Below are positions 22,250-55,563 of a stretch of 64,000 nt of DNA, piece after piece (within the stretch, counting starts at the first letter, position 1; each line of letters opens with the position of its first letter). The DNA lies in contig JANPLN010000042.1 in assembly GCA_031426555.1 (NCBI GenBank), forward strand, positions 1 through 64,000. The letters run 5' to 3'. The translations under genes and the position numbers were made by a program. Origin of the DNA: Bdellovibrionales bacterium. GTDB taxonomy: Bacteria > Bdellovibrionota > Bdellovibrionia > Bdellovibrionales > JAGQZY01. The notes under the pieces are model-generated. The model was not told where the DNA came from. It saw only the letters and a list, made by a program, of their open reading frames with translations, and did not search any database.

Positions 22250-23245
22250 ACTGAGCATCGTTAACCACTCATTATTTTTTGCGTACCAGTTCACGGTTTG
22301 ATGCAGTCCTTCTTCGAACGACACCGAAGGCGACCAACCGAGTTCCGTGTGGGCTTTTGTAAAATCAATGGCATAGCGCCAGTCATGCCCTTTACGGTCT
22401 TGCACGTATTCAATCAGCGAATCGGGCTTTTTAAGAATCGAAAGAATTGTTTTTACCACATCGATGTTGCGTCGTTCTGACTGTCCACCAAAATTGTAAA
22501 CAGAACCTGCCGTACCTTTTTCGAACACCGACCATATGCCACGGTTGTGGTCATCCACAAAAATCCAGTCGCGAATATTTTTGCCGTTTCCATACACAGG
22601 CAGAGGTTTGTCTTGCATGGCATTGAGGGTCATCAGGGGAATTAATTTTTCGGGAAACTGATAGGGCCCATAGTTGTTCGAGCAGCGGGTGATGCACGCG
22701 TTGAGTTTGAACGTTTCAAAGTAGGCGCGCACTAAGAGGTCGGAGCCCGCTTTACTGGCGCTGTAAGGGCTGTTCGGCGCAAGGGGTGTGGTTTCGGTGA
22801 ACGCAGGAGAGTCTTCTTCGAGGGTCCCATAAACTTCGTCAGTGCTCACGTGCACAAATTTGAAGGCGGGATTGGATTCCGCAGCCTTTAAAGAGGCGTT
22901 GAGCAAATTGAGTGTTCCCAGAACATTTGTTTCGACAAAAATATTCGGAGAATCTATGGAGCGATCAACGTGCGACTCCGCCGCAAAGTGAATGACACCT
23001 GCAGGTTGAAAATCGTTAAAAACTTTTTGCACCGCTTCGGCGCGACGGATATCCAGTTTTTGAAACTTAAGGTGAGAGAAAGCATCCAGTTCGGGTTGAA
23101 TGGTTTGCAATCGTCCCGCATAGGTGAGGGCATCTACAATCACAAAGTTGTATTGGTTTCGAACGGCATCGCTGCAGGTAATTTTTTTTACAAAGTTGCT
23201 GCCGATGAAACCAGCGCAGCCAGTGAGTAGAATGGTTGGTTTCAT
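22238..23245 (-). CDS. rfbB: dTDP-glucose 4,6-dehydratase
   Basis: TGCAGFIGSN, DALTYAG, FAAESHVDRSI, VSTDEVYG, SPYSASKA, CSNNYGPYQFPEKLIP. Confidence 0.96.
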   Translation of the reverse strand: MKPTILLTGCAGFIGSNFVKKITCSDAVRNQYNFVIVDALTYAGRLQTIQPELDAFSHLKFQKLDIRRAEAVQKVFNDFQPAGVIHFAAESHVDRSIDSPNIFVETNVLGTLNLLNASLKAAESNPAFKFVHVSTDEVYGTLEEDSPAFTETTPLAPNSPYSASKAGSDLLVRAYFETFKLNACITRCSNNYGPYQFPEKLIPLMTLNAMQDKPLPVYGNGKNIRDWIFVDDHNRGIWSVFEKGTAGSVYNFGGQSERRNIDVVKTILSILKKPDSLIEYVQDRKGHDWRYAIDFTKAHTELGWSPSVSFEEGLHQTVNWYAKNNEWLTMLSSIT

Positions 23246-23891: not shown

Positions 23892-24761
23892 ATGAAGGGT
23901 ATTATTTTAGCAGGTGGCAGCGGGACTCGTTTATTTCCAACAACTCTCGCCGTGAGCAAGCAGCTTTTGCCTGTTTACGACAAACCGACAATTTATTACC
24001 CGTTATCCACGCTCATGATTGCTGGCATTCGAGAAATCATGATTATCAGCACACCCCGCGATGTGCCCATGATTCGCTCCTTGCTCGGAGATGGAAAAAA
24101 ACTGGGTCTCGAAATCAGCTATGCCGTTCAAGAAAAACCAGACGGTATTGCCCAGGCATTTGTTATTGCCGATGAATTTATTCGTGGCTCGTCGGTATGT
24201 TTAATTCTTGGCGATAATATTTTTTACGGCGAGAACATGCCGACCATGCTGCAGGAAGCGACGCAACTCAAAACCGGAGCCGCAGTGTTTGCTTACCGCG
24301 TGAATGATCCAGAACGCTACGGCGTGGTTGAATTTGATGAATCAGGTAAAGCGGTGAGCATCGAGGAAAAGCCCGCTGTGCCGCGATCGAGCTGGGCGGT
24401 GACCGGGCTTTACTTTTACGACAGCAATGTCACTCAGTTAGTTCGTGGCTTGAAGCCCTCTAAGCGTGGAGAAATCGAAATCACGGATCTCAATTCGCTG
24501 TATCTTAAAGCGCAAGATTTAAAAGTTTTCACCTTGGGTCGCGGAGTGGCGTGGCTTGACACGGGCACCGATGATTCACTTTTGGACTCCGCTCAGTTTG
24601 TCCATACCATCGAAAAACGCCAAGGCCTTAAGATTGCGTGTCTTGAAGAGATTTCGCTAGAAAAAGGATATATTTCGAAAACTCAGTTTACAAAACTTGC
24701 CGAGGAAGCTCCCATGAGTGGCTACGGGCAGTACTTAAAAAAAATCGCATCGCATCTTTAA
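23892..24761 (+). CDS. rfbA: Glucose-1-phosphate thymidylyltransferase
   Basis: MKGIILAGGSGTRLFP, SKQLLPVYDKP, LGDNIF, EEKP, WLDTGT. Confidence 0.97.
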   Translation: MKGIILAGGSGTRLFPTTLAVSKQLLPVYDKPTIYYPLSTLMIAGIREIMIISTPRDVPMIRSLLGDGKKLGLEISYAVQEKPDGIAQAFVIADEFIRGSSVCLILGDNIFYGENMPTMLQEATQLKTGAAVFAYRVNDPERYGVVEFDESGKAVSIEEKPAVPRSSWAVTGLYFYDSNVTQLVRGLKPSKRGEIEITDLNSLYLKAQDLKVFTLGRGVAWLDTGTDDSLLDSAQFVHTIEKRQGLKIACLEEISLEKGYISKTQFTKLAEEAPMSGYGQYLKKIASHL

Positions 24762-36650: not shown

Positions 36651-37502
36651 ATGTATAAATTTAAGCCTCTCGCAAAGCCGTTTTCTTACACATATCAAGA
36701 TCAAACCTTTACCTGGGGCGATTGCAAAAAGTGGTCTCTTTTTTCGGGACCCGACATCATCGAAGATGAGGGGATGGTGGTCGAGGTGGGTCAAGAGCTC
36801 AAAAAACTCGCGGCCAAACACAATGTGAATTGGTTTTTAAAGTGCTCCTTCGACAAAGCTAATCGCACCAGCGGCACAAGCTTTCGTGGTCACGGCGTGA
36901 AAGAGAGCCTGCAGATGCTCGCCAGAATTAAAGCCAAGGTAGGGGCTCCCGTCCTGACGGATGTTCACGAAACTTGGCAGGTGCCTTTAGTGGCCGAAGT
37001 GGCCGACGTGATTCAAATCCCAGCATTTTTGTGTCGCCAAACAGATCTTGTGGTTGCGGTGGGCGAAACGCAAAAAATCGTGCACGTCAAAAAAGGCCAG
37101 TTTTTAGCACCGTGGGATATGAAGTCCGTTGTGGATAAAATCAAAAGCACCGGGAACGATAAAATACTTCTCTGCGAGCGCGGAACGACCTTTGGTTACA
37201 ATCGCCTCGTCAACGACATGATGGGCTTGGTGGACATGCGATCTTTGGGTGTTCCGGTGATTATGGATGCCTCTCATTCGACGCAACTCCCAGGAGCCTC
37301 GGGTGTGGCCAGCGGTGGACGCTCCGACATGATCCCCGTGCTCGCGAAAGCGGCCATGGCTGTAGGTGTGGATGGATTGTTTATCGAAACGCACCCAAAC
37401 CCCGACAAAGCCCTTTGCGATGGTCCAAGCAGTCTTCCACTCAATCAAATGGATGATTTGCTAACCACTCTCAATCAGCTTTGGAAAACCCATTTTAATT
37501 AA
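36651..37502 (+). CDS. kdsA: 3-deoxy-8-phosphooctulonate (KDO8P) synthase
   Basis: FDKANRTS..SFRG, TDVHE, QIPAFLCRQTDL, KKGQF, CERG, DASHS, ETHP. Confidence 0.93.
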   Translation: MYKFKPLAKPFSYTYQDQTFTWGDCKKWSLFSGPDIIEDEGMVVEVGQELKKLAAKHNVNWFLKCSFDKANRTSGTSFRGHGVKESLQMLARIKAKVGAPVLTDVHETWQVPLVAEVADVIQIPAFLCRQTDLVVAVGETQKIVHVKKGQFLAPWDMKSVVDKIKSTGNDKILLCERGTTFGYNRLVNDMMGLVDMRSLGVPVIMDASHSTQLPGASGVASGGRSDMIPVLAKAAMAVGVDGLFIETHPNPDKALCDGPSSLPLNQMDDLLTTLNQLWKTHFN

Positions 37503-37532
37503 ACTCATTCACAGGGAATAATCTTGCCTAGC

Positions 37533-39473
37533 ATGAAGAGAGCTACCGTTATTTTTATAATTGGTGCAGTTCTCTTCCTGGGGCAAAGATTCTTTATGAT
37601 TGGAGTGTCCTATTCTGTAATGGGTATTCCACGCCTGGGAGATGATGCATTTTTTTACGTCTCAAAAGGTATAGGTGTTTTTAAAAACTACAATCACGAT
37701 ACTCAGCTGCAAAAAGACATAAGAAAACAAATCTCGCAACAAACTTTACTTGATCCTACCCAAGTGCAGCAAAATCTAAGAGCGGAATATCAGGCTTACG
37801 GCGGACCCACTGTTTTTTACGATCTCCTCATGGGGGCAATCTACAAAATGGCGGGAAGTGTTAACAAGAGTTTTATGATCAGCGAAATTGTGGTTTCTTT
37901 ATGCATGTTTTTCTGCTTCTCGTACTTTTTTATCGCGCTCGCAGGGGTAGAGGTCGCAGGGTTCGGTTTAGCTTTACTGAGCCTACTTTTTTTACCAGGC
38001 CAAGGAATTCATTACTTGATACCAAGCACACTCGCTCTTTCGTTAGGAATCGCCTTTATTGCCTTTTGCCTTCGTGGAAAGAGGGTGGCTGTAGTTTTCT
38101 TACTGTCCGCTGCTACAGTAATGATTCATTTGATGGGGATCGTTTGGGTTTGCTTTGGAGTTTGTCTTCTAATACTCAGGTTTTTTAACTTCCAGAAAAA
38201 ACTTGATAGCAATGTAAAACAACTTCTACTATTAGTAGCGGCGGCGTTACTGCCAATTTTAATTAAAATTGTTCTGCTTCAAACGACAATTTATTTTTCG
38301 CTCCCCTACGCAACTGTGAGTTTTCCAAATAACCTTCAGGAAACGGTTCTTGTTAATCTAAATGTATTCATTGAACATTTGCTTGCTATGAAACTGCCAA
38401 CACAACTCATTCTTTTGTTTTCTGCGTGCAATGTACTTTACTTAGTTGTTTCGAAAAAACTTGAGCAGAGGGAGAACTCATTACTTCTCGTTTTTTTTCT
38501 GCTTCTGTTCACTTCAATATTTGTTTATGTTCCATTTATCCCGGCCGAGGTTTCTATCCGTGTTTTTTCGGCAATGAGTTTATTTTTGATTCTTTTGATG
38601 GCAAAACGCTTGGCTTATTCATCTGGAAATCTAAAAGCCTTTGCTGGTTTTGGGTTATTTTTCATTGCCTTCTCAGTTTGGACTTTTAGTGACCTGCAAA
38701 TTTATATGAAAGAGAATTTCGGACGACGCTATGTGATCAATTCCGAATTATTTAAGGAAGAAATTAATAGGTTTGATCTTGGAAAAGAAGTTTTGTTTTA
38801 TCTGGATACGGAGTATACCTTTCGGCAGGCGGTCCTTGCTGGCTTGGAAGTTTATCCGTCTTATCTTTATCCATTGATAGATCGACAACCAAACAAAGAA
38901 GAGTTTTTTTACAAATCGCCAACTTTGTTTATGTTTCCAGTATTTAACTCACTCAATACCCGAGTCGATGGCAATAAAAACTACTCTCGTGCCCACGAGT
39001 ATGGCTTAGATTTATCGATCTTGAGAGGTCTGAAAATTGAAAGCTCGAGTCAGATTAAAAAGATTTATCTAAAGTTAAAAAATTATGGAAACGCCACAAA
39101 ATTAAACTTACTCGTGAACGGTGAAGCCGTCTCATTTGATTTGAAAGCGAATGAAGAAATTTGGACTACTATTGATCTTCGTACGGTTGTTTCAAGTGTT
39201 GAAGTAAAAAATAATGTCGGAGATGTTTTAATTAGTGGCTTGCATTTGAATGACTTAAATAAATCCGAAAAGGTAAACTGGCCTTGGGGTGAGGATGTAA
39301 CATTAAATATCATGTTTATTGCAAACGACTCCGAAGATCATAAAATATTAGATTTTTCTATTTCGGGCATTTTTACGAGCCAAGAAATGAATACGTTTTC
39401 CAAGATTCAAAAAATAGAGGCCCTTTCTGACAATTCGGGGATCGTAGTCGCAAGGATTCATTCGTGGCTGTAG
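37533..39473 (+). CDS. Large membrane protein, putative GT-C-type transferase with C-terminal soluble domain
   Basis: Acidic PRLGDDAFFY motif after TM1, many TM segments, then a periplasmic domain; AT-rich. Confidence 0.55.
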   Translation: MKRATVIFIIGAVLFLGQRFFMIGVSYSVMGIPRLGDDAFFYVSKGIGVFKNYNHDTQLQKDIRKQISQQTLLDPTQVQQNLRAEYQAYGGPTVFYDLLMGAIYKMAGSVNKSFMISEIVVSLCMFFCFSYFFIALAGVEVAGFGLALLSLLFLPGQGIHYLIPSTLALSLGIAFIAFCLRGKRVAVVFLLSAATVMIHLMGIVWVCFGVCLLILRFFNFQKKLDSNVKQLLLLVAAALLPILIKIVLLQTTIYFSLPYATVSFPNNLQETVLVNLNVFIEHLLAMKLPTQLILLFSACNVLYLVVSKKLEQRENSLLLVFFLLLFTSIFVYVPFIPAEVSIRVFSAMSLFLILLMAKRLAYSSGNLKAFAGFGLFFIAFSVWTFSDLQIYMKENFGRRYVINSELFKEEINRFDLGKEVLFYLDTEYTFRQAVLAGLEVYPSYLYPLIDRQPNKEEFFYKSPTLFMFPVFNSLNTRVDGNKNYSRAHEYGLDLSILRGLKIESSSQIKKIYLKLKNYGNATKLNLLVNGEAVSFDLKANEEIWTTIDLRTVVSSVEVKNNVGDVLISGLHLNDLNKSEKVNWPWGEDVTLNIMFIANDSEDHKILDFSISGIFTSQEMNTFSKIQKIEALSDNSGIVVARIHSWL

Positions 39474-40288
39474 TTAAGCTATCTCCAGATCTCGTAAAAA
39501 AGTTTATTCATCTCAAAAAAGGCGAGATATATCTTAACGAAGCTCAATTTGGTTTATCTCATGTTTTTGAAAATCTCCGCAGTCTTCCACCGGGCTCCAG
39601 GGTATTAGAAGTGGGTTCGGGTCCTGGAATTTTGCTAGCTGAACTATCAAAACTTTTTCCAGATTTGCACATAGAAGGTATCGAGCCAAACAGTCAAGGC
39701 TTTGAGTTTTTTTCGGACTTCCAGTCAAATTTGGAAAACCAAATTAAAATCCATTGTGGGGGATATGAAACCTTCGATAGTAATAAGTCCTGGGACTTTA
39801 TATTTTCGGTAAATGTTTTTGAGCATTTGCCTGATTGGAAAAATTTTATTGGTTTTCTCAAGCAAAACCTCTCTTCTCGAGGCACGGCTATGATTCTTTG
39901 TCCTAACTATAGTTTTCCATATGAGTCACATTTTGGTTTGCCAATTATTTTCACAAAACGACTGACGTATTTTTTTTTTCAAAACTACATCAGGGCTTTT
40001 GAAAAAAAAAATGAGTGCGCTGGACTTTGGCAAAGTCTTAACTTTGTTAAATACCGTGAAGTTGCACGCTGTCTCAAAAGCAATAAAATGGAGCTAATTA
40101 GTCATTTACGAATCGTTGAGGAGATGGTTCAAAGACTTTCCTATGATAAACAATTCGCGCAGCGACAGATGTTTTTGTCACTGCCTGCACGTTTTTTGAT
40201 GCGCACAAATTTGCTTACGAAAATTTTAAAGTTTCCAGGGATTCGATATTATGTTCCCTACATGCATTTAGAAATTAAACCAGGATAG
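39464..40288 (+). CDS. Class I SAM-dependent methyltransferase
   Basis: VLEVGSGPG, GIEP, NVFEHL, CPNY.FPYESH. Confidence 0.85.
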   Translation: MAVVKLSPDLVKKFIHLKKGEIYLNEAQFGLSHVFENLRSLPPGSRVLEVGSGPGILLAELSKLFPDLHIEGIEPNSQGFEFFSDFQSNLENQIKIHCGGYETFDSNKSWDFIFSVNVFEHLPDWKNFIGFLKQNLSSRGTAMILCPNYSFPYESHFGLPIIFTKRLTYFFFQNYIRAFEKKNECAGLWQSLNFVKYREVARCLKSNKMELISHLRIVEEMVQRLSYDKQFAQRQMFLSLPARFLMRTNLLTKILKFPGIRYYVPYMHLEIKPG

Positions 40289-40298
40289 TTTCAGAACT

Positions 40299-41432
40299 TT
40301 AACAATTTTTACGTATCCAATATGTTGTGCTTTCAAGGACAAAATCTTGGTTTTCATCTGTCAAATTGTAAAAAATTGGCAATCGGACTAAGCAATCTGA
40401 GAGGCGCTCACACTGTGGCAAAGATTCATTGCCCGCATATCGCAAACCGTAGGGAGACTTGTGCAGGGATACATAATGAAAGGTGCAGCATATTCCTGCG
40501 CCTTTCTGATCCAAAATAAACTGATCGCGTAGTTTTTTATTTGCAAAGATAAGTGCGAAAATGTGGTGGTTGGATGTGTTATAGCTTGGTGACTCAAGAA
40601 TCTGCACGCCGTGCTTTTCACAAATGGACTTTAAACTTTCATAATACTTATGCCAAACCTGTTTTCTGCGGTCTTGAATCACCGATAATTGTTCGAGCTG
40701 TGGTAAAAGATAAGCGGCATTCAAATCACTTAGGACATAACTGGAGCCCAAGTCCACCCATGTGTACTTGTCGGCCAATCCCATCATAAACTGTTTGCGA
40801 TTGGTGCCCTTCTGACGGAGGACATCAGACCGATCTACAAAATTTGGATTATTAATGATCAAACAGCCGCCCTCTCCAGATCCAACATTTTTTGTCTCAT
40901 GAAAGCTGTAACAACCCAGATCCCCGATAGTTCCTAAGGCCTGTCCTTTATATAAGCTGCCAATAGATTGTGCGGCATCTTCGAAAAGGAAAACATTGTT
41001 CTTCAAACAAATCGCCTTGAGTTCGTCCATGGGCGCAGAATTACCGCCGTAGTGGACAGTCACAACTGCTTTTGTCTTGGAGTTCAAAAGCCTCTCTACT
41101 TCCGATATTTTGAGATTTCCATACTCATCGACGTCAGCAAAACGAATACGAGCTTCGCGCAAGGCGAAAGCGTTGGCGGTGGACACAAAAGTGAAGGCGG
41201 GAATGATGACCTCATCATCTTTTCCGATATGGCCAAGCAGTGCCATCATTTCCAAGGCATGAGTCGCTGATGTCACAATAGAGTTTCTAGAGCCATTGAG
41301 CAGATCCAGACGTTTTTCGCATTCTAGAGTAAACGGTCCAACCCCTGAAAGGTGCTTCGAAAGTAAGGCCTTTTGTAAAATGGCCTTATGTTCTTCGAGG
41401 TAGATGGGTTCGTTAAAAGGAACTCTGTACAT
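40299..41432 (-). CDS. rffA: dTDP-4-amino-4,6-dideoxygalactose transaminase
   Basis: SATHALEM, FTFVSTANAF, EDAAQ, SFHETKN..GEGG, KGTNR..F...DKYTWVDLGSSY (WecE signature). Confidence 0.9.
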   Translation of the reverse strand: MYRVPFNEPIYLEEHKAILQKALLSKHLSGVGPFTLECEKRLDLLNGSRNSIVTSATHALEMMALLGHIGKDDEVIIPAFTFVSTANAFALREARIRFADVDEYGNLKISEVERLLNSKTKAVVTVHYGGNSAPMDELKAICLKNNVFLFEDAAQSIGSLYKGQALGTIGDLGCYSFHETKNVGSGEGGCLIINNPNFVDRSDVLRQKGTNRKQFMMGLADKYTWVDLGSSYVLSDLNAAYLLPQLEQLSVIQDRRKQVWHKYYESLKSICEKHGVQILESPSYNTSNHHIFALIFANKKLRDQFILDQKGAGICCTFHYVSLHKSPYGLRYAGNESLPQCERLSDCLVRLPIFYNLTDENQDFVLESTTYWIRKNC

Positions 41433-41522: not shown

Positions 41523-42491
41523 ATGGCTTATATTTCCGCAGTAGTTCCAGTTTACAAAGGTGAATCCTGTTTTGAAGAGCTTTTGCGTCGACTCGTTTCC
41601 GAAATGGAGATCATTTCGAAAGATTATGAAATTGTCTTCGTAGAAGATTGTGGCGGCGATGGTTCCTGGAAATTGATTTGTGATGCTGCAAAAAAGAACC
41701 CGCGGATCAAAGGTATCCAGTTGAGTCGGAACAGTGGAGAACATCATGCGCTTTCTGCAGGTTTAGATCTTTGCGATGGAGAGTGGGTGGTCCTTTTGGC
41801 GTGTGATTTACAAGATCCTCCCGAGGTTATCGGCGACCTCTACCGTAAGGCCAAAGAAGGCTTCGATATTGTTGTGGCCTCGAGGATGAATCGCAAGGAC
41901 AGCTTTGGAAAAATTTTGTTCTCGATGATTTACAATCGTTTAATTTCTTGGCTGGCCGATGGGAAGTTTGATACCAAAGTCGCTAATTTTCGAATTGTGA
42001 GCCGCAAAGTTGTTTTGAGTTTTCGAAAATACCGAGAAAGCATTCGCTCAATTCCTGGCATCATGAATGTGATGGGATTCCGAGCCACAGTCCTCCCCAT
42101 CGAGCATGCGGAGCGCTTTGCTGGGAAAAGCAGCTACAACTTTTACCGATCCTTACGACTCGCACTTCACAACATTATTGCATATTCTGACAAACCCCTA
42201 AAGCTGGCTGTATATTTAGGCTTTTTTATTGCGAGCAGTTCTTTTTTGTATGGAGCTTTTTTGATTTTGAGAATGTTTGTCGTCGGAGGCACGCTGCCGG
42301 GGTGGACAAGCCTCATTGTTTCGGTTTTTTTCGTGGGCGGAGTGAATCTTTCCATGATGGGTGTGCTAGGTGTGTATCTTGGAAAGGTGTTTAACCAAGT
42401 CAAAGGACGGCCCAATTATTTAATCAGCGAGGCGACTTTTGATGCTGCTTCGGCCATAAATGATAAAAGATTACATCCGAACCGGTCTTAA
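41523..42491 (+). CDS. GT2, GtrB/ArnC-like bactoprenol glycosyltransferase
   Basis: SAVVPVY, VEDCGGD, LSRNSG, CDLQDPPE, RFAGKSSY, SDKPL, GWTSL, GVYLGKV..RPNY. Confidence 0.88.
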   Translation: MAYISAVVPVYKGESCFEELLRRLVSEMEIISKDYEIVFVEDCGGDGSWKLICDAAKKNPRIKGIQLSRNSGEHHALSAGLDLCDGEWVVLLACDLQDPPEVIGDLYRKAKEGFDIVVASRMNRKDSFGKILFSMIYNRLISWLADGKFDTKVANFRIVSRKVVLSFRKYRESIRSIPGIMNVMGFRATVLPIEHAERFAGKSSYNFYRSLRLALHNIIAYSDKPLKLAVYLGFFIASSSFLYGAFLILRMFVVGGTLPGWTSLIVSVFFVGGVNLSMMGVLGVYLGKVFNQVKGRPNYLISEATFDAASAINDKRLHPNRS

Positions 42492-43170
42492 CAAATCCAA
42501 GCTGGTTGAAAAAACGTTTAGATTCTTGGTTATGGGAGTAGATTGAAGTTCGAAGCTCTAATGGGGGCGATGCTTGTGTGGCGCTGCTCATAAGGTGCTT
42601 TACCAGCTGAAGTGAAACGAACCCCATACGAAATTGTGGTGCCACGAGCAGTTCGTAGAGATTCCAAACTGAGTCCTTCATATAGCCAACGTGAAAGCCG
42701 ATGAGTCTGTTTTCTGCATCGACAGCTACACAGCCATTGTTCGTTGATTTTGCTAAATGTGTCTTCAACATTTCTAGCTTATGGAACTGAACGGATTCCT
42801 TTGATAAATGCGCATCTGCTGAGAATCGAGTTGTGGAAGAAAACTCAAGCAGTCCTTTTATTGCGGGCCAATCGTTTGGCTGGAGATTTCGCGTTTTAAA
42901 TTTAGATGGAACTTTTGCAAGACGCGAGACTGCCGACGCCGGTAAAGCGGTCCAGGTTTCAAGGCCGCCAACAAACTGACAAAAGCGCGGTTCATTTATC
43001 CTTAGGGCAGCACGAATGACAACAAGATCAATTTCCGAAGCCAGAGCCTGAGAATATATTTTTTCTCCGATTTCTACATCTACACACATCTCTGGGGTTA
43101 AGACGACTTCAGCCACACGAATGGAAAATAACTTTGAATTAAATTCGTTCGTGCTGAAGTGAATTTTCAA
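42424..43170 (-). CDS. GNAT acyltransferase, WecD/RffC-like
   Basis: TRF..D.HL, LLVAPQFRMG, HNQESKRFFNQLGF, C-terminal YHLW; TTG start overlaps asnB stop. Confidence 0.7.
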   Translation of the reverse strand: MKIHFSTNEFNSKLFSIRVAEVVLTPEMCVDVEIGEKIYSQALASEIDLVVIRAALRINEPRFCQFVGGLETWTALPASAVSRLAKVPSKFKTRNLQPNDWPAIKGLLEFSSTTRFSADAHLSKESVQFHKLEMLKTHLAKSTNNGCVAVDAENRLIGFHVGYMKDSVWNLYELLVAPQFRMGFVSLQLVKHLMSSATQASPPLELRTSIYSHNQESKRFFNQLGFVKTGSDVIFYHLWPKQHQKSPR

Positions 43171-45134
43171 AGTCGCACGACCTTTTTAATTAAATGGCTC
43201 ACATCTTTAACTTGCAGGGGCCGTTTAAACTCTTCCTGAAGAATCAACGAAGAAAGCACAACAAAAAATGCGGTGTTGTCCCTGCGGGAAAGAGGCTTGT
43301 TATTCTGTATGGTCGCCTGAATTCTTCTTAAAAAGTTGAGAACCCCTTGTTCATCAAAAACGCCTGAGTTTTTAAGACTTGAAGAATTGATGTAGTCTTG
43401 CACCGGCCATTGCTCTGTAAAGAATATCTCTGCATCGAGGGATAAAAATGGCTTCTTTCGTTTTTCGAACAAAAAATCAGGAATATCTTTTTTAAATGCA
43501 TCATACAGGATCTGTTTTTCCTTCAGGCCGTCCATGAATTCGGTCACGGAATGCGAAAATGCATAGTTAAGTACGTCACGGTCTAAAAATGGCAATCGGG
43601 TTTCGATAGAGTGTGCAGATGCCATTCGATCGCCTTGGGAAGAAAGAAGGTAGCCATGAAGAAGCGTTAAGCACTCAACGGCGCGTGTTTGATCAAGAGT
43701 ATTTAGCTGCGCAAGTTCCGGAAAGTCGCGCGAAAGTGAATCGTTGACCTCAGGAAAAGTGTCTTTGTTGAGTAAGGAAAGATGACCTGTAACTTGCGAC
43801 CATCGGGTGAGGTGTCCAGCAAATGGTTGACTCATCTGCGGTAAAAAACTCTTATAAAACGGGAGCATCAACTTGGCCGACGTTCCCTGAAATTGTGGTA
43901 GATAACTGTATATTTTTAAAATGTCGGAAAAATGTGGACCGTCGGGTTCCTTTGACCACTGCGAAAGGATCTGTGCCTCTTTGTAGATGTCGTACCCACC
44001 GAAGAGTTCATCAGAGCCTTCGCCCGTGAGAACAACCTTCACCCCTTCTCTCTGCGCGAGCTGAGACAGGAGGAACATAGGTACCGCGGCAGAACGAAAC
44101 GTTATGCTTTCGGCGGATAAAACAGACGGAACAAAGTTTTCGAGAATGTCGTTTTGGGAAATTCGCACCTTATGATGTTCAGACCCAATCATCTTTTGGA
44201 CGATTGCTTGGGATGAACTTTCATCGAACTGCAAATTCTCAAATTCTATCGAAAAAGATTTTAGAGGGAGTGTGGTATTGCGTGCGGCGAGCAAGCTCAC
44301 TACGGTACTATCAAGGCCGCCACTCAAATAAACACCAACTGGCACGTCCGCAACCATTCGGCGGGAGACAGCACGAGATAAAAGCTCGCGCACTTCAGCA
44401 CTCGACGGTTGAGAATGGGGTTTCTGCGGGGCAAAAGTCCAATGGCGCGTTTCCACCATTTGTGTGGAGCTGATTTTTAGAAAAGATCCGGGTTTTAGTT
44501 GAAGGATATTTTTAAATGATGTTTGCGGAGGAATAGGGGTCCACGTTTCAAGCGACTGTGTAACGGCCAAACTATTGATCTCTGGAGATTGAGAACCGGT
44601 GGCCCAGAGCAAAGGTTTAATTTCGGATGAGAATAAAATAGCATTGTTTTCGAGAATTCTATAATAAAGCGGCTTTATTCCTATTGGGTCTCGAAACAGA
44701 TAGCTCTCGTTCTTTAAGGAATCAAAAATTGCAAACGCATACTCACCATTAAGATGCTCGGTCAATTTTGTCCCGTACTTTTCGAACAAATTAACAATTG
44801 TTTCTGTGTCAGAAGTTGTCTGGAATTCCATCCCAGCGCTTTGTAGCTGACCCCGTAACATCGAATTATCGTAAATTTCACCGTTATAGACAATCCAATA
44901 TCTTTTTGAGTGGCTTGCAATGGGTTGTGTTCCTGTCAGCAGATCAATAATTTTTAACCGAGCATTTGCAAAAAAACTCTGGCCAGAGGTGAGAATTCCC
45001 ATCTCATCGGGACCTCGGTGTTCTATAAGACTTAACATTCCCTCTGCAAGTGCGAGGACGTCATTTTTAGGGCTCACGCCGAGGCTTTTAAGCTCTTTAT
45101 TCTGGGGATTAAAAAGTCCTACAATGCCACACAT
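43167..45134 (-). CDS. asnB: Asparagine synthase (glutamine-hydrolyzing)-like amidotransferase
   Basis: MCGI (Cys2 nucleophile), HRGPD, NGEIY, LSGGLDS, TGEGSDELFGGY, ETRLPFLD. Confidence 0.9.
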   Translation of the reverse strand: MCGIVGLFNPQNKELKSLGVSPKNDVLALAEGMLSLIEHRGPDEMGILTSGQSFFANARLKIIDLLTGTQPIASHSKRYWIVYNGEIYDNSMLRGQLQSAGMEFQTTSDTETIVNLFEKYGTKLTEHLNGEYAFAIFDSLKNESYLFRDPIGIKPLYYRILENNAILFSSEIKPLLWATGSQSPEINSLAVTQSLETWTPIPPQTSFKNILQLKPGSFLKISSTQMVETRHWTFAPQKPHSQPSSAEVRELLSRAVSRRMVADVPVGVYLSGGLDSTVVSLLAARNTTLPLKSFSIEFENLQFDESSSQAIVQKMIGSEHHKVRISQNDILENFVPSVLSAESITFRSAAVPMFLLSQLAQREGVKVVLTGEGSDELFGGYDIYKEAQILSQWSKEPDGPHFSDILKIYSYLPQFQGTSAKLMLPFYKSFLPQMSQPFAGHLTRWSQVTGHLSLLNKDTFPEVNDSLSRDFPELAQLNTLDQTRAVECLTLLHGYLLSSQGDRMASAHSIETRLPFLDRDVLNYAFSHSVTEFMDGLKEKQILYDAFKKDIPDFLFEKRKKPFLSLDAEIFFTEQWPVQDYINSSSLKNSGVFDEQGVLNFLRRIQATIQNNKPLSRRDNTAFFVVLSSLILQEEFKRPLQVKDVSHLIKKVVRL

Positions 45135-45997
45135 TTTGTAATGTCCTCATTGGTAGTCATGGAAAAACAAGGTTTTGTGCGCATGTAAAACAACATTTTT
45201 TTTAATTGGTCGCCTTGACCACATTCAAGAAAGTGGGTTGTGCCAAACTGAACAAGGGTTTGGATCGATTTGTGCCAAAGAACGGGAGAACACATATGAC
45301 CAAGAAGGTTGCTCTTGATAATTTCAGGATCCGTCTCGCCGGCACCACTGTAGTTGCATACATAAAAACAGGTTGGAGGGTGAAACTCGTAGCGATCAAG
45401 CAGCTGTTGATATTCCTCAATTGAGTCTTTTAAAAATGGACTGTGCCAAGATCCTTCAACATCAAGCAACTGTACCTGAAAGTTTAATTTCGTAAGTTGC
45501 TGGGAGAATGCGTTTAAATTTTCTTTAAGGCCGCAAAGGGTATGATTAAAAAGTGAATTGATCGTCGAAAAGAAAATCTTTTGATTTAGTTTTGCTTCCG
45601 CTAGTAGAGTTTTAATATCGTCGTGAGTGGGACCAATCACACTGAGCATTCCGTGGTCCAGCGGCATATACTTTTTCATGAGCAGAGAGCGTTTAACAGC
45701 GAGCTCCAAGGCTGAGCGCCAGTCAAGTATTCCGGCAGAGTAAAGTGCCGCCATTTGTCCCACCGAGTAGCCACTCACTGCGGCGTAGGAGCCTCCATGG
45801 GCCTTGTAAAGTTGTGCGCAGGCAATGCCCTCGGCGACAGAAAACGAAGAAACAATGGTGTGGGAAGAATTGCTATCCAAATTTTCAGCCGTTACCAAAT
45901 CCTTTACATATTGAAAACATTCACTTTTAGATTGGGAATAGTTTGAAAATTGTTCGACAGTAACTTTACCAAGGCCAGCGAAAAGAAGTGTTTTCAC
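45119..45997 (-). CDS. FabD-like ACP S-malonyltransferase (standalone AT)
   Basis: GYSVG (catalytic Ser), conserved Arg (VKRS), GSWHS (catalytic His), SPVLW, FLECG. Confidence 0.82.
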   Translation of the reverse strand: MKTLLFAGLGKVTVEQFSNYSQSKSECFQYVKDLVTAENLDSNSSHTIVSSFSVAEGIACAQLYKAHGGSYAAVSGYSVGQMAALYSAGILDWRSALELAVKRSLLMKKYMPLDHGMLSVIGPTHDDIKTLLAEAKLNQKIFFSTINSLFNHTLCGLKENLNAFSQQLTKLNFQVQLLDVEGSWHSPFLKDSIEEYQQLLDRYEFHPPTCFYVCNYSGAGETDPEIIKSNLLGHMCSPVLWHKSIQTLVQFGTTHFLECGQGDQLKKMLFYMRTKPCFSMTTNEDITKCVAL

Positions 45998-46986
45998 GTG
46001 AACCTGTTAAGTTTCTTTTCGATAGGGGCTGTATCAACGGCTTTGAATTTCATTTTATCCAAGCCCTCTTGTCTAGAGATCGTTCCTCTGCGGACCATCA
46101 CTGCGGTTTCTGCTACGTAAGGATGAAACCGCCATTTTTCGAGGTGTTTTTGGATGGCGTAGTCATTGAGGAGACAATTCGAAGAGGACTTTCCGGTGTC
46201 GGGAGGGCGCACCCAGCCGAGAGTTTGAATCTCCTTGATAATGGCATCTTCGTGCAAATTTAAGTATGTCATAGGATTTAAAATCCATACTTCTCGCATT
46301 TCGGGAGAATCTTTTTGCTGGAAATACGCAAGGGTATCATTCTGAAAATAATTTTTAAAATTTTCCAGTGTTTGGGTGCGTGATTTCATCGAAGCCGCTA
46401 AGTTTTGCTTCATAAAACCAGTCTCTGAGGGAATTTGACCACCAAGGTAGCCGCCTGAAATCACTGGAATTTTTTGTTCGATGGCGAAGTTAACAACTTG
46501 GTTGTTAATGAGTTGAATACAGCTGTTACAGACAGAGCTAGCTCTTTTGCTCGCTGCTGCAGAATAGATATCTTGCTTGAGGGAAGTTCTATAAACTTCC
46601 ATCATGACTTTGGCGTTAGGTTTAAAGAAAATGTGATCGACGCCAAGTTCAGACGTCACGGTTTCGCAATTTTGTTTTGCAGTTTCAGAGATGAAATCAT
46701 TGTTAATCGTGTAAGCAAGAATTTTGGTGTCGAAATTTTCAGTTAGATATTTTAATGTGTAACAAGAGTCTTTGCCGCCGCTAAATGCTAAAATGATTCC
46801 GTAATGATTTTTTTCAACATTATTAAGTTTTACTTTAACTTGAGTTTCAACGTCGATCCGTACGCGCTCGAAATCAACATTCTTTTTTTCAAAATCGGTA
46901 CAGTAATTACAAATGCCTTCAGGGCTGAAAGAAATTCCTGGGAAAGTTGCAGGCAGTACGCATCGGGTGCAGATTTCTACAGTCAT
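45994..46986 (-). CDS. PP-loop (N-type) ATP pyrophosphatase with Zn finger, N-acetyl-sugar amidotransferase (WbuX)/QueC-like
   Basis: CTRCVLP...GICNYC, AFSGGKDS, CNSC, SSNC, HPY, VRRGTISR. Confidence 0.8.
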   Translation of the reverse strand: MTVEICTRCVLPATFPGISFSPEGICNYCTDFEKKNVDFERVRIDVETQVKVKLNNVEKNHYGIILAFSGGKDSCYTLKYLTENFDTKILAYTINNDFISETAKQNCETVTSELGVDHIFFKPNAKVMMEVYRTSLKQDIYSAAASKRASSVCNSCIQLINNQVVNFAIEQKIPVISGGYLGGQIPSETGFMKQNLAASMKSRTQTLENFKNYFQNDTLAYFQQKDSPEMREVWILNPMTYLNLHEDAIIKEIQTLGWVRPPDTGKSSSNCLLNDYAIQKHLEKWRFHPYVAETAVMVRRGTISRQEGLDKMKFKAVDTAPIEKKLNRFT

Positions 46987-47237
46987 TGTAGTTTCTTTTT
47001 TTCAATTAACTGTGTAAGCCCCGAAATTGTTTGCATGTGAATAGAGACAAGATCCTGTTCGTCAAAAGTGATGGAGAATTCGGATTCGACCTCAGTGACT
47101 AGCTCCATAAAGCCGTACGAATCCATACCAATAACAAATAAATTTTTGTCTGCCATTTGGCTGGAAATGGGGGTTGCCATAATGACAGTAAGTTTCTGAA
47201 TTAGATATTCCTGTACAGGATTTTTTGCGGGAGTCAT
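46983..47237 (-). CDS. Acyl carrier protein (84 aa)
   Basis: Acidic; LFVIGMDSYGFMELVTEVESEFSI (GxDS phosphopantetheine site); ATGA coupling to next gene. Confidence 0.85.
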   Translation of the reverse strand: MTPAKNPVQEYLIQKLTVIMATPISSQMADKNLFVIGMDSYGFMELVTEVESEFSITFDEQDLVSIHMQTISGLTQLIEKKKLQ

Positions 47238-47527: not shown

Positions 47528-49390
47528 CTAGCGATACTTTTGTAAAGTTGTTTTCGAAAAAAGAAGTTCCCCAATATATTTTGCTCCAGATTGCGTAACA
47601 TGGTGGGCGTCCTCTGATAGAAGTGCTCCATCAGGGGTATACACAATACAAGTCGACGAGTTTTTGCCGCAGATCATGTCGTGCATGGAAATATAATTCG
47701 CTTTTTTAACATTTTTTTCGAGAGATACTTCGATTTGTAAAAAATCAGCAAAATAATTTCCTCCGAGTGGTTTACGATAGTCTGCATCAGCCTGATTAAA
47801 GTCTCCTATTTTTGCGGTTCCAAAAATCTTTTTTCCAATGACGTAGACGACTGCATCTTTCTTTTTGGGGATGTTCTCAATTGTTTCATCAATTCTTTCC
47901 GCAGCCCACTGCCGCCATGAGCTTGCAAGAAGAATTACATCTGCCTCTTCACTCAGTCTTAAGAATCTCGTTGTAGAATCTTTGGAACAAAGATTTTTAT
48001 CCTCTGATGCAATAAATTGCGTAACGTTCACTTTGCCGTAGTAAATTTGGCAACGTGCAGGAATTGTGTGGGTGAGAATTTCATACCCTGGAAAAGCTTT
48101 ATTTTCAAAAATCATATTCGTTAGATCCTCGGCAAAGCTATCGCCAACAATCAGTAATTTTGGCTGTTGGGTCGAAAATTTTTCTAAATAACTGAACTGT
48201 TCAAATTGTTTCTTTCGGTATACGCTTGTTTTGTAAGGGTCTGGCAGTCGGTGAATGGTGTAATCGGAAAAACGTTGTGGGTGACCGTTTTCCAATGTCA
48301 GATAGTGCGCAATGCCAGCAAGAAGAATGGTTGATGTAATGAAAAATACGAAGACTGACGATTGGGATATCAGTTTTCGATTGCGAAACGGTTGTTCAAT
48401 AAATTTCCAACTCAGGTAGGATAAAATAAACGTTAAAAATATTAGTATGGAAAATTCACTGCAGGAAGGGTGCTCTTTGTATAGCTTTAAGTAGGCAAAA
48501 AGCGGCTGGTGCCATAAGTAGGCACTATAGCTAACAAGTCCAATTGAAACAAAAAAAGTATGAGATAAAAAACGTCCAACCAAGCTTGCAGAATTTGAAC
48601 ATAAAATGATCAAACCAGCACCGCAAGTTGGTATGAGTGTGGTTAAGCCTGGTGTGGGTGTGTGTTTTGAGAATAGAAAAACGGATGCTAAGATAAAAAC
48701 CAGGCCAAATGCTTCCCCGAATTTTAAATACAAGGAGGAAATTTTTGTACTTTTTATCGTTGTCCGATACAGCCCGAGAAAACAGCCAAGTAAAAGTTCC
48801 CAAATACGTCCACGCATTAGAAAAAAATTGGCGTCCATGTTGGAGCGCCAGCCTAATTCTGCCCAAACGAGACCAAGAACAAATAAAATTGAGAGAAGCA
48901 GAGTTAAAAATAATCGAGACCGTTTATAGAGAACAAGCAGAAGAAGTGGAAAAAGAACATAAAATTGTTCCTCTACGCTAAGACTCCATGTGTGGAGCAG
49001 AGGTTTTTCTTCAGCCGTGGCAAGAAAGTAACCAGACTCTTTCCAAAACAAAAGATTTGAACAGAAGGCAAGAACAGCAAGAATGCTTCGTCCAAAATCT
49101 ACAAGTTGGTAGGGAAACATCCACGCCCAAGCAGGAGGTATCGTAGCTAAGATGACAAAGAACAATGCTGGCGATATTCTACGAATTCGACGCTCATAAA
49201 AGTTTAAAATTGTAAAAGAGCCTTTTTGAATTTCTGAAAGTATATTGGACGTTATCAGATATCCACTTATGACAAAAAAAATATCGACGCCGACAAATCC
49301 ACCACCGAAGATCGTAAACCCAGCGTGAAAAAAAATAACCGGAAGAACGGCAATTGCACGGAGGCCGTCGATCTCTCTACGATAAACCAA
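47528..49390 (-). CDS. Acyltransferase-3 + SGNH fusion O-acetyltransferase (OafA/OatA-like)
   Basis: YRREIDGLRAIAV, GVDIFFVISGYLI, HTWSLSVEEQFY, SYSAYLWHQP; SGNH GDSFA and DAHH. Confidence 0.92.
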   Translation of the reverse strand: MVYRREIDGLRAIAVLPVIFFHAGFTIFGGGFVGVDIFFVISGYLITSNILSEIQKGSFTILNFYERRIRRISPALFFVILATIPPAWAWMFPYQLVDFGRSILAVLAFCSNLLFWKESGYFLATAEEKPLLHTWSLSVEEQFYVLFPLLLLVLYKRSRLFLTLLLSILFVLGLVWAELGWRSNMDANFFLMRGRIWELLLGCFLGLYRTTIKSTKISSLYLKFGEAFGLVFILASVFLFSKHTPTPGLTTLIPTCGAGLIILCSNSASLVGRFLSHTFFVSIGLVSYSAYLWHQPLFAYLKLYKEHPSCSEFSILIFLTFILSYLSWKFIEQPFRNRKLISQSSVFVFFITSTILLAGIAHYLTLENGHPQRFSDYTIHRLPDPYKTSVYRKKQFEQFSYLEKFSTQQPKLLIVGDSFAEDLTNMIFENKAFPGYEILTHTIPARCQIYYGKVNVTQFIASEDKNLCSKDSTTRFLRLSEEADVILLASSWRQWAAERIDETIENIPKKKDAVVYVIGKKIFGTAKIGDFNQADADYRKPLGGNYFADFLQIEVSLEKNVKKANYISMHDMICGKNSSTCIVYTPDGALLSEDAHHVTQSGAKYIGELLFSKTTLQKYR

Positions 49391-53220: not shown

Positions 53221-54192
53221 TCAATGACGTGTGAGGTAGCGCTCCGCACGCTGATCAATAATAAGGTCTGGAGCTCCAGAGTCTCTAAAGGCTCTGGGAA
53301 GGTATTTTTGGGTGTCGAAAAAGCGCATGTATACGATTTTACGAAAGTACGGAGCTAAATAAAACTGCAACTTGTCGCTAAAAGAATCTCGTACAACCCA
53401 AATCACTTTTTGCGCCGAGTGGTTTTCGTAGACGACATAATTTCCATCCGAAATAACAGGAATCTGGCAGCAGGCACCTTGCAGATTCACTTTTAGGTGA
53501 GGCCGCGACACTTCTTCAAAGCCGATGATTTTATCCAACCCGTTTAACATTAAAAAGATATCGTGCGGATTCTGCCGCGCAAGGACTTCTTCCCTCGGTG
53601 GCAGCGGCACTGTTTGCGTTGCTAAGAGGTTGTCGACGGCTTTGAGAATGGCAAGATGTGCGGTGTACGCCCCCCAATCGTTCCAATGGGTGTCGGTGGC
53701 GTGGTACAACTGGCGTTCGCCCTTAGCGCGGAGAAGCGGCTCGTACAGCGAAAGGACGTGAGGTTCTAATTCTTTGGCAGCGGCAAGAATTTGCTGCAGA
53801 TATTTATTTTCGGCGGGACGGTAGTCTGCAAATAAGTAGTTGGTGAATTCGAGGTACACGGTTTCTTTGTTGGGAGCAATTACCAAAAGGTACTTGGCCG
53901 CGAAACCGTAGGGCGCCTTTACAAATTGGCGAATTCGCTGGGCGCTTTCTTGAATTGTGACGGGGAAGGAAACGCCCCAAAAATCCTCCCAAGCAGTGCC
54001 ATCACTTTTGTTAAAATAAAACAGCCAACCGTCTCGCCCCAGATGAACATTGCCGGTATTTGTGTGGTGCAAGACGTTGACTTGCCAGAGAGCGTTTAAA
54101 TTATAAGCCTGCTCGCGCAGATAGCCTTTTACCGAAAACACTCCGGGGGCTGCAATCAGAAAAAAATAAATAAAGACCAGAAACTTTTTCAT
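53221..54192 (-). CDS. AlgJ/AlgX-like SGNH O-acetyltransferase partner
   Basis: N-terminal TM; GRDGWLF, APNKETVY, TDTHWNDWGAY (DxHW), RDSF. Confidence 0.85.
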   Translation of the reverse strand: MKKFLVFIYFFLIAAPGVFSVKGYLREQAYNLNALWQVNVLHHTNTGNVHLGRDGWLFYFNKSDGTAWEDFWGVSFPVTIQESAQRIRQFVKAPYGFAAKYLLVIAPNKETVYLEFTNYLFADYRPAENKYLQQILAAAKELEPHVLSLYEPLLRAKGERQLYHATDTHWNDWGAYTAHLAILKAVDNLLATQTVPLPPREEVLARQNPHDIFLMLNGLDKIIGFEEVSRPHLKVNLQGACCQIPVISDGNYVVYENHSAQKVIWVVRDSFSDKLQFYLAPYFRKIVYMRFFDTQKYLPRAFRDSGAPDLIIDQRAERYLTRH

Positions 54193-54195
54193 TTG

Positions 54196-55563
54196 TTAAA
54201 ACCTAAAGTAGATAAAAGGGTTGTACTCTTGGCCACAGAGAAAGATGCAGGAAATCAAAAAGACACTCATAGACCAGAGGTGGCTCTGGCAATCTAGTTT
54301 GTAAACCACCGGTGTACAAAATAAAACAGCTATTAAAAAATAAACGTAGAAATGCGGGGTGGAAACGAATTGCAAAGTGTCGTTGGAGATCAAATGACCG
54401 TGCAAGCCGGCCATACTTGAGTACATGGCGCAGATTTGCGCAAACGATTCTGCGCGAAAAATAACCCAACTCAAAACAATCACAAGCAAGGCGTAGGTGT
54501 GCTGAAGCCACTGCGGAAAGTGAAAATTCATTTTTTTGCCCAAGATTCTTTCGCAGATCAAAAAGAATCCGTGGTAACAACCCCAAAGAAGAAACGTCAC
54601 ATTGGCCCCATGCCAAACTCCACAAAGAATAAACACCAGCATGAGATTTCGATACTCTTTAAAAACTCCCTGTTTGTTGCCTCCGAGGGGAATATACAAG
54701 TAATCGCGAAACCAAAGAGACAGCGTGATGTGCCAGCGGCGCCAAAACTCTTTTATACTTCGGGCTAAATAGGGAGCATTAAAGTTTTCTGGAAGAACAA
54801 TGCCGAACATTTTTGCGAGACCCACGGCCATGTCGGAGTATCCCGAAAAATCAAAATAAATTTGCAGGGTATAAGTACAGGCGGCCACCCACGCGAGAGT
54901 GGTATCCAAGCGGCTACTGTCCAATGTAAAAAGCATGTCGGCGTAGTAACCAAGGGGATTGGCGATGATGACTTTTTTTCCAAGTCCCAGCGAAAACCGT
55001 CGAAAACCCTCGGCAACCTGTTCCCAGCTATGGGTTCGGTTTTCTAATTGGTTTTTAAGATCCACATATCGAATGATAGGCCCCGCCACCAGGTGGGGAA
55101 AAAAGGTAATAAAGGCCCAGTAATCAATAAAGCGGCGCGTGGCTTTGATATGCCCTCTGTACACGTCGATGATATAGCTCATGGATTCGAAAGTATAAAA
55201 ACTGATGCCAATGGGGAGCGCGATGTTTATGTACGGCGTGTATTTAAAAAAGACGAGCAACCCCATGTTCGAAACAATAGATATCAGCAATAAATAAAAA
55301 AGAAATTTTGCATTGGGCGCCGGTTTTTTTTGCTCGGCGTCCATGAGCAAGGCGATACAATAGTCAGTAAGCCCCACCACGAGCATCACCCAAAAGAATT
55401 TTTTTTCTCCAGTTATATAAAAATCCACGCTCGCAGCGAACAGAACAAAATTGAGGGCATTAAAAACTGAGCGCTTGTTTTTAAAAATCGCATGTGTGGC
55501 AAAGTAGAGCGCCAACACAATGGGCAAAAAGCTAAAAATAAATGCCAGCGAACTAAAAACCAT
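54196..55563 (-). CDS. MBOAT O-acyltransferase (AlgI/DltB family)
   Basis: LPIGISFYTF, FFPHLVAGPIIRY, QIYFDFSGYSDMA, FWRRWHITLS.WFRDYLYIPLGGN, GVWHGA. Confidence 0.93.
   Translation of the reverse strand: MVFSSLAFIFSFLPIVLALYFATHAIFKNKRSVFNALNFVLFAASVDFYITGEKKFFWVMLVVGLTDYCIALLMDAEQKKPAPNAKFLFYLLLISIVSNMGLLVFFKYTPYINIALPIGISFYTFESMSYIIDVYRGHIKATRRFIDYWAFITFFPHLVAGPIIRYVDLKNQLENRTHSWEQVAEGFRRFSLGLGKKVIIANPLGYYADMLFTLDSSRLDTTLAWVAACTYTLQIYFDFSGYSDMAVGLAKMFGIVLPENFNAPYLARSIKEFWRRWHITLSLWFRDYLYIPLGGNKQGVFKEYRNLMLVFILCGVWHGANVTFLLWGCYHGFFLICERILGKKMNFHFPQWLQHTYALLVIVLSWVIFRAESFAQICAMYSSMAGLHGHLISNDTLQFVSTPHFYVYFLIAVLFCTPVVYKLDCQSHLWSMSVFLISCIFLCGQEYNPFIYFRF

Follow-up and report, generated by a model that had tools for sequence, protein, structure and literature searches.

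The AMDH domain of CysH, a nonribosomal peptide synthetase (NRPS) of cystobactamid biosynthesis, converts carrier-bound asparagine to cyanoalanine in vitro with a mass change of -18 Da, and deletion of the domain abolishes the reaction; alternatively it isomerises the carrier-bound asparagine, and the protein is dark brown (PMC7966384, in its available part). The same portion of that report states the mechanism to be unknown, mentions that the domain resisted crystallisation, and places all BLAST homologs inside asparagine-specific adenylation (A) domains (PMC7966384). The present report concerns a PP-loop protein encoded in a 64,000-nt stretch of contig JANPLN010000042.1 from a Bdellovibrionales bacterium (the window, i.e. 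the whole stretch of DNA that was analysed). Judged by its sequence, this protein is homologous to the AMDH domain but free-standing: it is encoded by an open reading frame (ORF) of its own between the genes for an acyl carrier protein (ACP) and an acyltransferase, and is not inserted in an asparagine-specific A domain.

CtaC of closthioamide biosynthesis is an iron-sulfur (Fe-S) enzyme of the AANH type that thioamidates carrier-bound amides, with D77, S78, C154, C157 and C284 as key residues in the available part of the report (PMC6772006). An N-terminal tetracysteine and a PP-loop are features of WbuX (PMC10607449). QueC/ToyM, ArtA/NitB, CalN and PesC are ATP-dependent nitrile synthetases that take an amide to a nitrile, as set out in the portion available of a further report (PMC13060819). 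AsnB-type amidation gives a malonamyl unit in the OxyD-type starter modules of oxytetracycline, again as described in the accessible part of the source (PMC13607094).

The homology to AMDH was established from several comparisons. A genome scan recovered the albicidin synthetase (locus L076, identity confirmed by the names in its cluster), and BLASTP aligned residues 2-313 of the PP-loop protein with its insert at 31% identity (E 1e-38). Of 1.84 billion representatives searched with a profile, 1,112 matched at E<=1e-30, and among the best 150 of these, proteins of NRPS length rank directly behind the stand-alone family. Nine residues (C153, C156, G183, Q184, S268, N270, C271, N274 and Y290) are invariant in 23/23 AMDH domains (that of L076 plus 22 random NRPS-length matches), nearly so across the 113 stand-alone members, and for the most part missing from 32 WbuX proteins; seven distant proteins were left outside these groups. 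The protein scores 194 against the AMDH profile, below 119 against WbuX and 78 against the CtaC-type profile, and in quick trees it falls with AMDH on one side of a branch with 95-97% support.

The ORF and the CxxC..CxxC, SGGKDS and CxxC motifs described by an earlier reading of the window (the sequence-only reading) are present, as C6xxC9...C26xxC29, S69GGKDS and C153xxC156, together with a DTGxSxNCLLND loop. The tetracysteine C6/C9/C26/C29 is likely a Zn site, and the triad C153/C156/C271 likely a [4Fe-4S] site, cluster binding being predicted. Shared with AMDH (CysH, AlbIV) are the tetracysteine, SGGKDS, CxxC, GQ, W-x-x-P-x-DTG-x-S-x-NC-x-x-ND, H, Y and R motifs, a carrier-bound primary amide as presumed substrate, and the absence of a glutaminase partner of the PP-loop enzyme itself (AsnB is treated below). 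The protein differs from AMDH in forming part of a clade of its own (GGYxGGQ, NP, FHPY), in having an ACP, an acyltransferase and AsnB as partners, in lying in a glycan locus rather than an NRPS, and in its presumed substrate, malonamyl instead of asparagine. It would thus be expected to work like AMDH, while by architecture it is not an AMDH member. Every motif residue is intact in a 95%-identical relative (P0001), and the ORF is therefore considered to be under selection.

The predicted structure has a predicted local distance difference test score (pLDDT) of 95. The best match in a structure search is 8WEX (Z 24.2, 311 residues aligned, root-mean-square deviation 3.8), followed by NcsA/TtuA (Z 12-13), ArtA (Z 11.5) and QueC (Z 10.7); no AMDH structure was found by sequence in the structure bank. 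The likeness to ArtA is at the level of the fold. The ESM Atlas returned automatic PP-loop names only. A metagenome scan with the single protein as query gave no matches, and one with an alignment of the family gave 23 loci, mostly short or distant.

The PP-loop protein is not a WbuX. Its best NCBIfam match is TIGR03573 (WbuX), with a score of 133 bits, under the curated cut-off of 203.2. The WbuX-like architecture ascribed to it earlier holds for the N-terminal tetracysteine and the SGGxDS loop; the third CxxC, together with C271, is an AMDH trait. In a reference set of 32 WbuX proteins over the cut-off (30 loci found in 301 sampled genomes belonging to the phylum of the host), the full C153/C156/C271 triad is found in 2/32 as against 23/23 NRPS AMDH domains, the median identity to the PP-loop protein is 19% (29% for AMDH domains), and an acidic D-D motif stands where the PP-loop protein has N-C. 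HisH and HisF genes lie within 1.5 kb at 24/30 WbuX loci. None was found in the window, as the sequence-only reading had noted, nor in the host genome (3.14 Mb, rated 100% complete), where the best profile scores were 22 and 21 bits against cut-offs of 105 and 300; custom HisH/HisF profiles likewise found none, nor was WbuZ found, and the PP-loop gene is the single WbuX-like gene. Co-occurrence in orthologs, which that reading had wished to see examined, amounts to HisH in 0/80 and a HisF-like gene in 1/80 family loci, with flanks of up to 10 kb, many ending early. Clustering within WbuX proteins with HisH/HisF partners elsewhere in the genome had been named as an outcome that would speak against the earlier proposal; a grouping of the protein with WbuX is rejected by the approximately unbiased (AU) test (p-AU 9e-7), as is that of its clade with WbuX (p-AU 0.004). 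These tests used a quick LG+G4 tree with 28 rows, 20 of 48 having been dropped, the long branches among them. WbuX/WbpG N-acetyl sugar amidotransferases (TIGR03573; PDB 8WEX) thus share the fold, tetracysteine, PP-loop and surface-glycan context of the protein, and differ in mostly lacking the Cys triad and in having HisH/HisF, the PP-loop protein belonging to a separate clade with an ACP cassette.

The gene lies in a cassette on the minus strand in the order ACP, PP-loop, FabD-like acyltransferase, AsnB and GNAT, with successive overlaps of 4, 4, 16 and 4 nt; the five genes are translationally coupled. The direct coupling to the ACP gene reported earlier is borne out, its stop overlapping the PP-loop start by 4 nt, and this ACP is the dedicated carrier of the cassette. 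From its family and motifs, the FabD-like enzyme is likely a malonyl-CoA:ACP transferase; the housekeeping FabD is located elsewhere in the genome, on contig C5. AsnB, which likely amidates malonyl-ACP, has an intact N-terminal nucleophile (Ntn) glutaminase domain, whose Cys stands at position 2 (Pfam GATase_7, 132 bits). The statement that the PP-loop enzyme has no glutaminase partner is not borne out, and the absence of an ammonia donor was overstated, because AsnB, two genes downstream in the same operon, retains this domain. The GNAT is likely to transfer the ACP-bound acyl group onto an amine. It has one close relative only, and its single-sequence model is poor (pLDDT 39). Coordinates are summarized in Table 1.

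Table 1. Features of the window discussed in the text
Feature	Position	Strand	Remarks
PP-loop ORF	45994..46986	minus	330 aa; predicted stand-alone AMDH-type enzyme
Acyl carrier protein (ACP)	46983..47237	minus	84 aa, DS attachment motif; Pfam PF00550 (PP-binding) 31.4 bits, over cut-off
FabD-like acyltransferase	45119..45997	minus	dedicated subfamily; GYSVGQ active site, conserved Arg, GxWHS/T
AsnB-type glutamine-hydrolysing amidotransferase	43167..45134	minus	655 aa; TIGR01536 420 bits vs cut-off 267
GNAT-fold acyltransferase	42424..43170	minus	248 aa, last cassette gene; Pfam PF13673/PF00583 over cut-off; Atlas GNAT clusters 0.96
WecE-type dTDP-4-amino-4,6-dideoxygalactose transaminase	40299..41432	minus	NF008687 438.6 bits vs cut-off 375; TIGR02379 375, under cut-off 435
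ArnC/GtrB-like GT2	41523..42491	plus	two C-terminal hydrophobic stretches
Polytopic membrane protein	37524..39473	plus	649 aa, 11 hydrophobic windows, no family match
Class I S-adenosylmethionine (SAM) methyltransferase	39464..40288	plus	family match
rmlB	22238..23245	minus	TIGR01181 over cut-off
rmlA	23892..24761	plus	TIGR01207 over cut-off
KdsA (KDO8P synthase)	36651..37502	plus	over cut-off; inside surface-glycan region
Acyltransferase-3/SGNH gene	47528..49390	minus	directly upstream of ACP
MBOAT + partner gene	53221..55563	minus	farther upstream of ACP

At least 114 loci of the family were confirmed, and the best 80 of these were surveyed; the PP-loop enzyme is stand-alone in 79, and 44 loci are visible over 8 kb on both sides. 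Of the 44 complete loci, 41 have an ACP gene and 41 an acyltransferase or acyl-AMP ligase; 26 have AsnB, 12 an NH3-type NAD-synthase-like (NadE-like) gene and one both of these, and an amide-forming partner occurs in 37/44. In eleven complete loci the NadE-like gene is the sole partner of this kind, and AsnB, HisH and nitrilase-family genes are all missing. The enzyme is thus accompanied by a carrier, by an enzyme that loads it and by a single amide-forming enzyme, which fits action on a carrier-bound primary amide. The loci with an acyltransferase-type cassette are that of the window plus L001, L003, L008, L009, L016 and L054, from several phyla including Myxococcota and Pseudomonadota. All five genes are present in 7/7 of these loci; the GYSVGQ enzyme has the conserved Arg in 7/7, with a bulky residue at the specificity position, and a GNAT-fold gene is adjacent in 7/7 (weak matches in L001 and L054, by homology in L003 and L008). 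The GNATs of the other six cassettes are related neither to that of the window nor to each other. Genes for GDP-mannose dehydratase, DegT aminotransferase, C-methyltransferase and GT2 neighbour the cassettes of L008 and L054. Many ligase-type loci are of the exopolysaccharide/PEP-CTERM kind, with a priming sugar transferase cluster in 18/80 and a deacetylase in 13/80.

In the window, the cassette shares a surface-glycan region of about 50 kb with rmlA, rmlB, WecE, GT2, the methyltransferase and the membrane protein. RmlA and RmlB supply dTDP-4-keto-6-deoxyglucose, the substrate of WecE, and WecE likely makes the acceptor amine. The GT2 likely puts the sugar on undecaprenyl phosphate, and the 649-aa membrane protein is a candidate periplasmic sugar transferase. 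Strains about 90% alike, from two other studies, yielded pieces covering WecE through ACP, one contig spanning AsnB to ACP. The cassette is patchy in distribution, since an AsnB of this kind is missing from all of 30 relatives: their best score is 228 bits, where the ACP-linked type reaches about 400. Four of the top AsnB matches and four of the top PP-loop matches come from contigs of equal length, an indirect sign that the two genes lie together in relatives as well. A promoter and terminator scan of the window gave results at chance level (9 vs 13, 7 vs 9).

We infer the following chemistry from four direct observations: homology to AMDH, the signature residues, conservation of the cassette and the lack of HisH/HisF. 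The acyltransferase would load malonyl from malonyl-CoA onto the dedicated ACP, as its family and motifs indicate. AsnB would then amidate the free carboxyl with glutamine nitrogen to give malonamyl-ACP, for which the AsnB-type amidation of a malonyl unit by OxyD offers a precedent; we know of no AMDH-type gene in OxyD-type modules. The PP-loop enzyme, using ATP at SGGKDS, would activate the amide oxygen and eliminate it to yield cyanoacetyl-ACP, probably aided by the three-Cys iron-sulfur site; this step is modelled on AMDH, for which dehydration has been demonstrated with CysH only. The GNAT would acylate the 4-amino group of the WecE product, dTDP-4-amino-4,6-dideoxygalactose (dTDP-Fuc4N), and, to judge from the neighbourhood, the sugar would reach a surface polymer through GT2 and the membrane protein, with undecaprenyl phosphate as the export carrier. 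The nitrile step alone is reasonably probable, and the nitrile with the full malonyl/ACP/GNAT route to dTDP-Fuc4N is only just favoured over its negation. The nitrile option of the sequence-only reading thus stands as the best-supported one, by way of AMDH and not of the QueC analogy on which it had been built; the cyanoacetamido surface sugar proposed there is a prediction. We put forward with some doubt the broader view that this is a widespread, hitherto undescribed family of stand-alone ACP-dependent nitrile synthetases feeding surface glycans and NRPS products, here making 4-(cyanoacetamido)-4,6-dideoxygalactose, the first nitrile substituent of a bacterial glycan, with the same logic in exopolysaccharide loci of Desulfobacterota and Nitrospirota.

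The analogy with QueC is confined to the fold, and no PF06508 match was obtained at E<=0.01. No 7-deazapurine pathway genes were found among 16 scanned neighbours; what relatives share with QueC is the NCBI name.

A number of observations weigh against the nitrile route. In the cystobactamid system the main AMDH product is the isomer and not the nitrile, according to the available part of the report (PMC7966384); on our own reasoning, an aminomutase mode acting on the symmetric malonyl unit would return the same molecule. PesC, which is AsnB-like, makes a nitrile alone in the portion of the source at hand (PMC13060819), and the division of labour between AsnB and the PP-loop enzyme may therefore differ from that given above. 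The protein falls outside the AMDH clade (100% support), the joint clade of family and AMDH has 92% support in the tree of the AU tests and is left open by the other quick trees, and the residues shared with AMDH may reflect ancestry and not chemistry. Two WbuX proteins with HisH/HisF (L104, L111) keep the Cys triad, so that the chemistry does not follow from these three cysteines by themselves. The family loci are kin and not independent draws, and 7/44 complete loci have no amide-forming partner. As to the acceptor, enterobacterial WecD is a GNAT that acetylates dTDP-Fuc4N; the GNAT of the window has no match to the WecD model, and it lies across a convergent junction from GT2. The cassettes of L009 and L016 are situated within NRPS clusters. 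For these reasons the assignment of a sugar acceptor is positional only. A WecD identity of the window GNAT is unsupported, the gene being absent from the two weak matches to TIGR02382 in the genome at E<=1.

A CtaC-like thioamide synthetase, a third possibility that the sequence-only reading had not named, is unlikely. The amide of malonamyl-ACP would be adenylated and attacked by a sulfide held on the [4Fe-4S] cluster, and the thiomalonamyl group would pass to the amino sugar. CtaC and the PP-loop protein are both stand-alone AANH enzymes with a PP-loop, carrier-bound amides as substrates (presumed for the PP-loop protein) and, at matching positions, three cysteines that bind an Fe-S cluster in CtaC and are predicted to do so in the PP-loop protein, D73/S74/C153/C156/C271 of the protein aligning with D77/S78/C154/C157/C284. 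L184, found by searching 399 scored genomes of a single class, carries the published residue numbers of CtaC and groups in the tree on the side of the PP-loop protein. A clade of family and CtaC is not rejected (p-AU 0.17), and that of family and AMDH has only 92% support, so that the tree does not decide between the two for the backbone of the three-Cys clan. In the homolog table of the CtaC report, as far as it is accessible, four accessions of the top 100 share a 90% cluster with the Paenibacillus loci L065-L067 (PMC6772006). The thiolases NcsA/TtuA come next after 8WEX in the structure search, and the host genome has three desulfurase-type genes elsewhere. Against thioamide formation, the protein has 20% identity to L184 (67 bits) versus 30% to the AlbIV domain (134 bits). 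Where the protein and AMDH show S-x-N-C-x-x-N-D, CtaC-type proteins have S-G-C-K/R-L, and the DTG loop and H281/Y290 are missing from the latter; 22 residues of the protein are common to AMDH and CtaC-type proteins, 19 are AMDH-only and 3 CtaC-only, a count based on three CtaC-type sequences, which favours AMDH. CtaC differs further in acting on internal secondary amides and in having no AsnB-type amide-forming partner described, and a desulfurase occurs in 0/80 family loci, though the CTA cluster is likewise without one. A sister clade on the AMDH side (L115-L119, from genomes G231, G153, G211, G240 and G246, plus the short L114; 100% support) counts for a thioamide and against a nitrile, in that a CmcH/NodU-type carbamoyltransferase and a cysteine desulfurase are present in 5/5 long loci. 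This clade shows no HisH/HisF, and two loci have tandem copies; it could carry out carbamoyl-to-cyano conversion (a logic like that of HypF/HypE) or thiocarbamoyl formation.

Formation of an amidine is rated lower still. The enzyme would adenylate malonamyl-ACP or an N-acyl sugar and add ammonia from AsnB or from solution, in the manner of WbuX/WbpG, to give a malonamidine or an acylamidino sugar. The fold is that of the Legionella N-acetyl sugar amidotransferase (8WEX), the WbuX model is the best family match, the context is a surface glycan, and, as just described, 2/32 WbuX proteins retain the triad; the missed cut-off, the rejected WbuX grouping, the exchange of D-D for N-C, the absence of HisH/HisF from the genome and the 11 complete loci with an NH3-type NadE-like partner and no glutaminase in view all argue the other way. 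The amidine option of the sequence-only reading is thereby weakened, and it stays alive because AsnB could supply ammonia. About as improbable as the thioamide is a different substrate or acceptor: an acyl group other than malonyl, action after transfer or on a sugar uronamide, the nitrile as an intermediate, or a protein, lipid or small molecule as acceptor. In 37/44 loci ACP is loaded by an acyl-AMP ligase of unassigned substrate, the cassette GNATs are mutually unrelated, L009 and L016 feed NRPS, and the acyltransferase-3/SGNH gene and the MBOAT pair lie nearby; a malonyl unit is nevertheless indicated by the carboxylate-binding Arg in 7/7 acyltransferases with their bulky specificity residue, a carrier-bound substrate by ACP in 41/44 loci, and a sugar acceptor by the related strains that have WecE, GT2, GNAT and the cassette. 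The acyltransferase-3/SGNH gene and the MBOAT pair are alternative acyl-transfer systems near the cassette; the former is thinly covered in three other sequencing runs, where a coverage hole proves no absence.

Searches of open-licence PMC and bioRxiv, which do not extend to subscription carbohydrate journals, yielded no paper describing a free-standing AMDH homolog together with ACP and AsnB, and none describing a cyanoacetylated polysaccharide. With its 330 aa, its small ACP and a presumed substrate of three carbons, the free-standing homolog makes AMDH chemistry directly testable, and could settle nitrile versus thioamide for unassigned members of the clan, given that some published CtaC homologs, in the part of the list available, bear the AMDH signature (PMC6772006). 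If the glycan prediction is true, the nitrile would join the known chemistry of bacterial surface sugars as a new kind of decoration with a built-in infrared tag, and the enzyme would offer an ATP-driven route to cyanoacetyl building blocks.

Several further loci were recorded. The NRPS clusters of L009 and L016 encode a B12 radical SAM enzyme and an acyl-CoA dehydrogenase besides a module of the condensation-adenylation-carrier-oxidase type; the second of these loci, L016, comes from a cultured organism (Methylobacterium nonmethylotrophicum) and is a candidate for a nitrile natural product. The NH3-type NAD-synthase-like gene (PRK00876), found in 17/80 family loci (e.g. L038:7620-8600), nearly replaces AsnB, which suggests that a PRK00876-type subfamily amidates acyl-ACPs rather than making NAD. 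In L002, a single case, a nitrilase with the CWE motif lies 37 bp downstream of the PP-loop gene. At L035:286-4362, an MBOAT and a GDSL-like gene precede the family gene and the ACP, in the style of DltB/AlgI acyl export.

A Bacillus thuringiensis plasmid (L158; NZ_CP039722.1, 10843-24912) carries ACPs and a family PP-loop gene labelled 7-cyano-7-deazaguanine synthase, along with two adenylate-forming enzymes, type II ketosynthases, FabZ, FabG, AsnB, a phosphopantetheinyl transferase and a radical SAM enzyme. L065-L067 (Paenibacillus) and L171 (clostridial) combine a ligase, the PP-loop gene and a KamA-type radical SAM aminomutase; L065-L067 add AsnB and NRPS. The set was published as CtaC homologs yet bears the AMDH signature. 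In a further AMDH-side subgroup (L130, L133) the PP-loop gene neighbours, or forms a fusion with, genes for a fatty acyl reductase (NAD_binding_4) and an AMP-binding enzyme. On the WbuX side of the tree, L120-L127 and L132 encode fusions of about 650 aa between an Ntn glutaminase and a WbuX-like PP-loop domain with SGGRDS, which are candidate self-sufficient amidine synthases.

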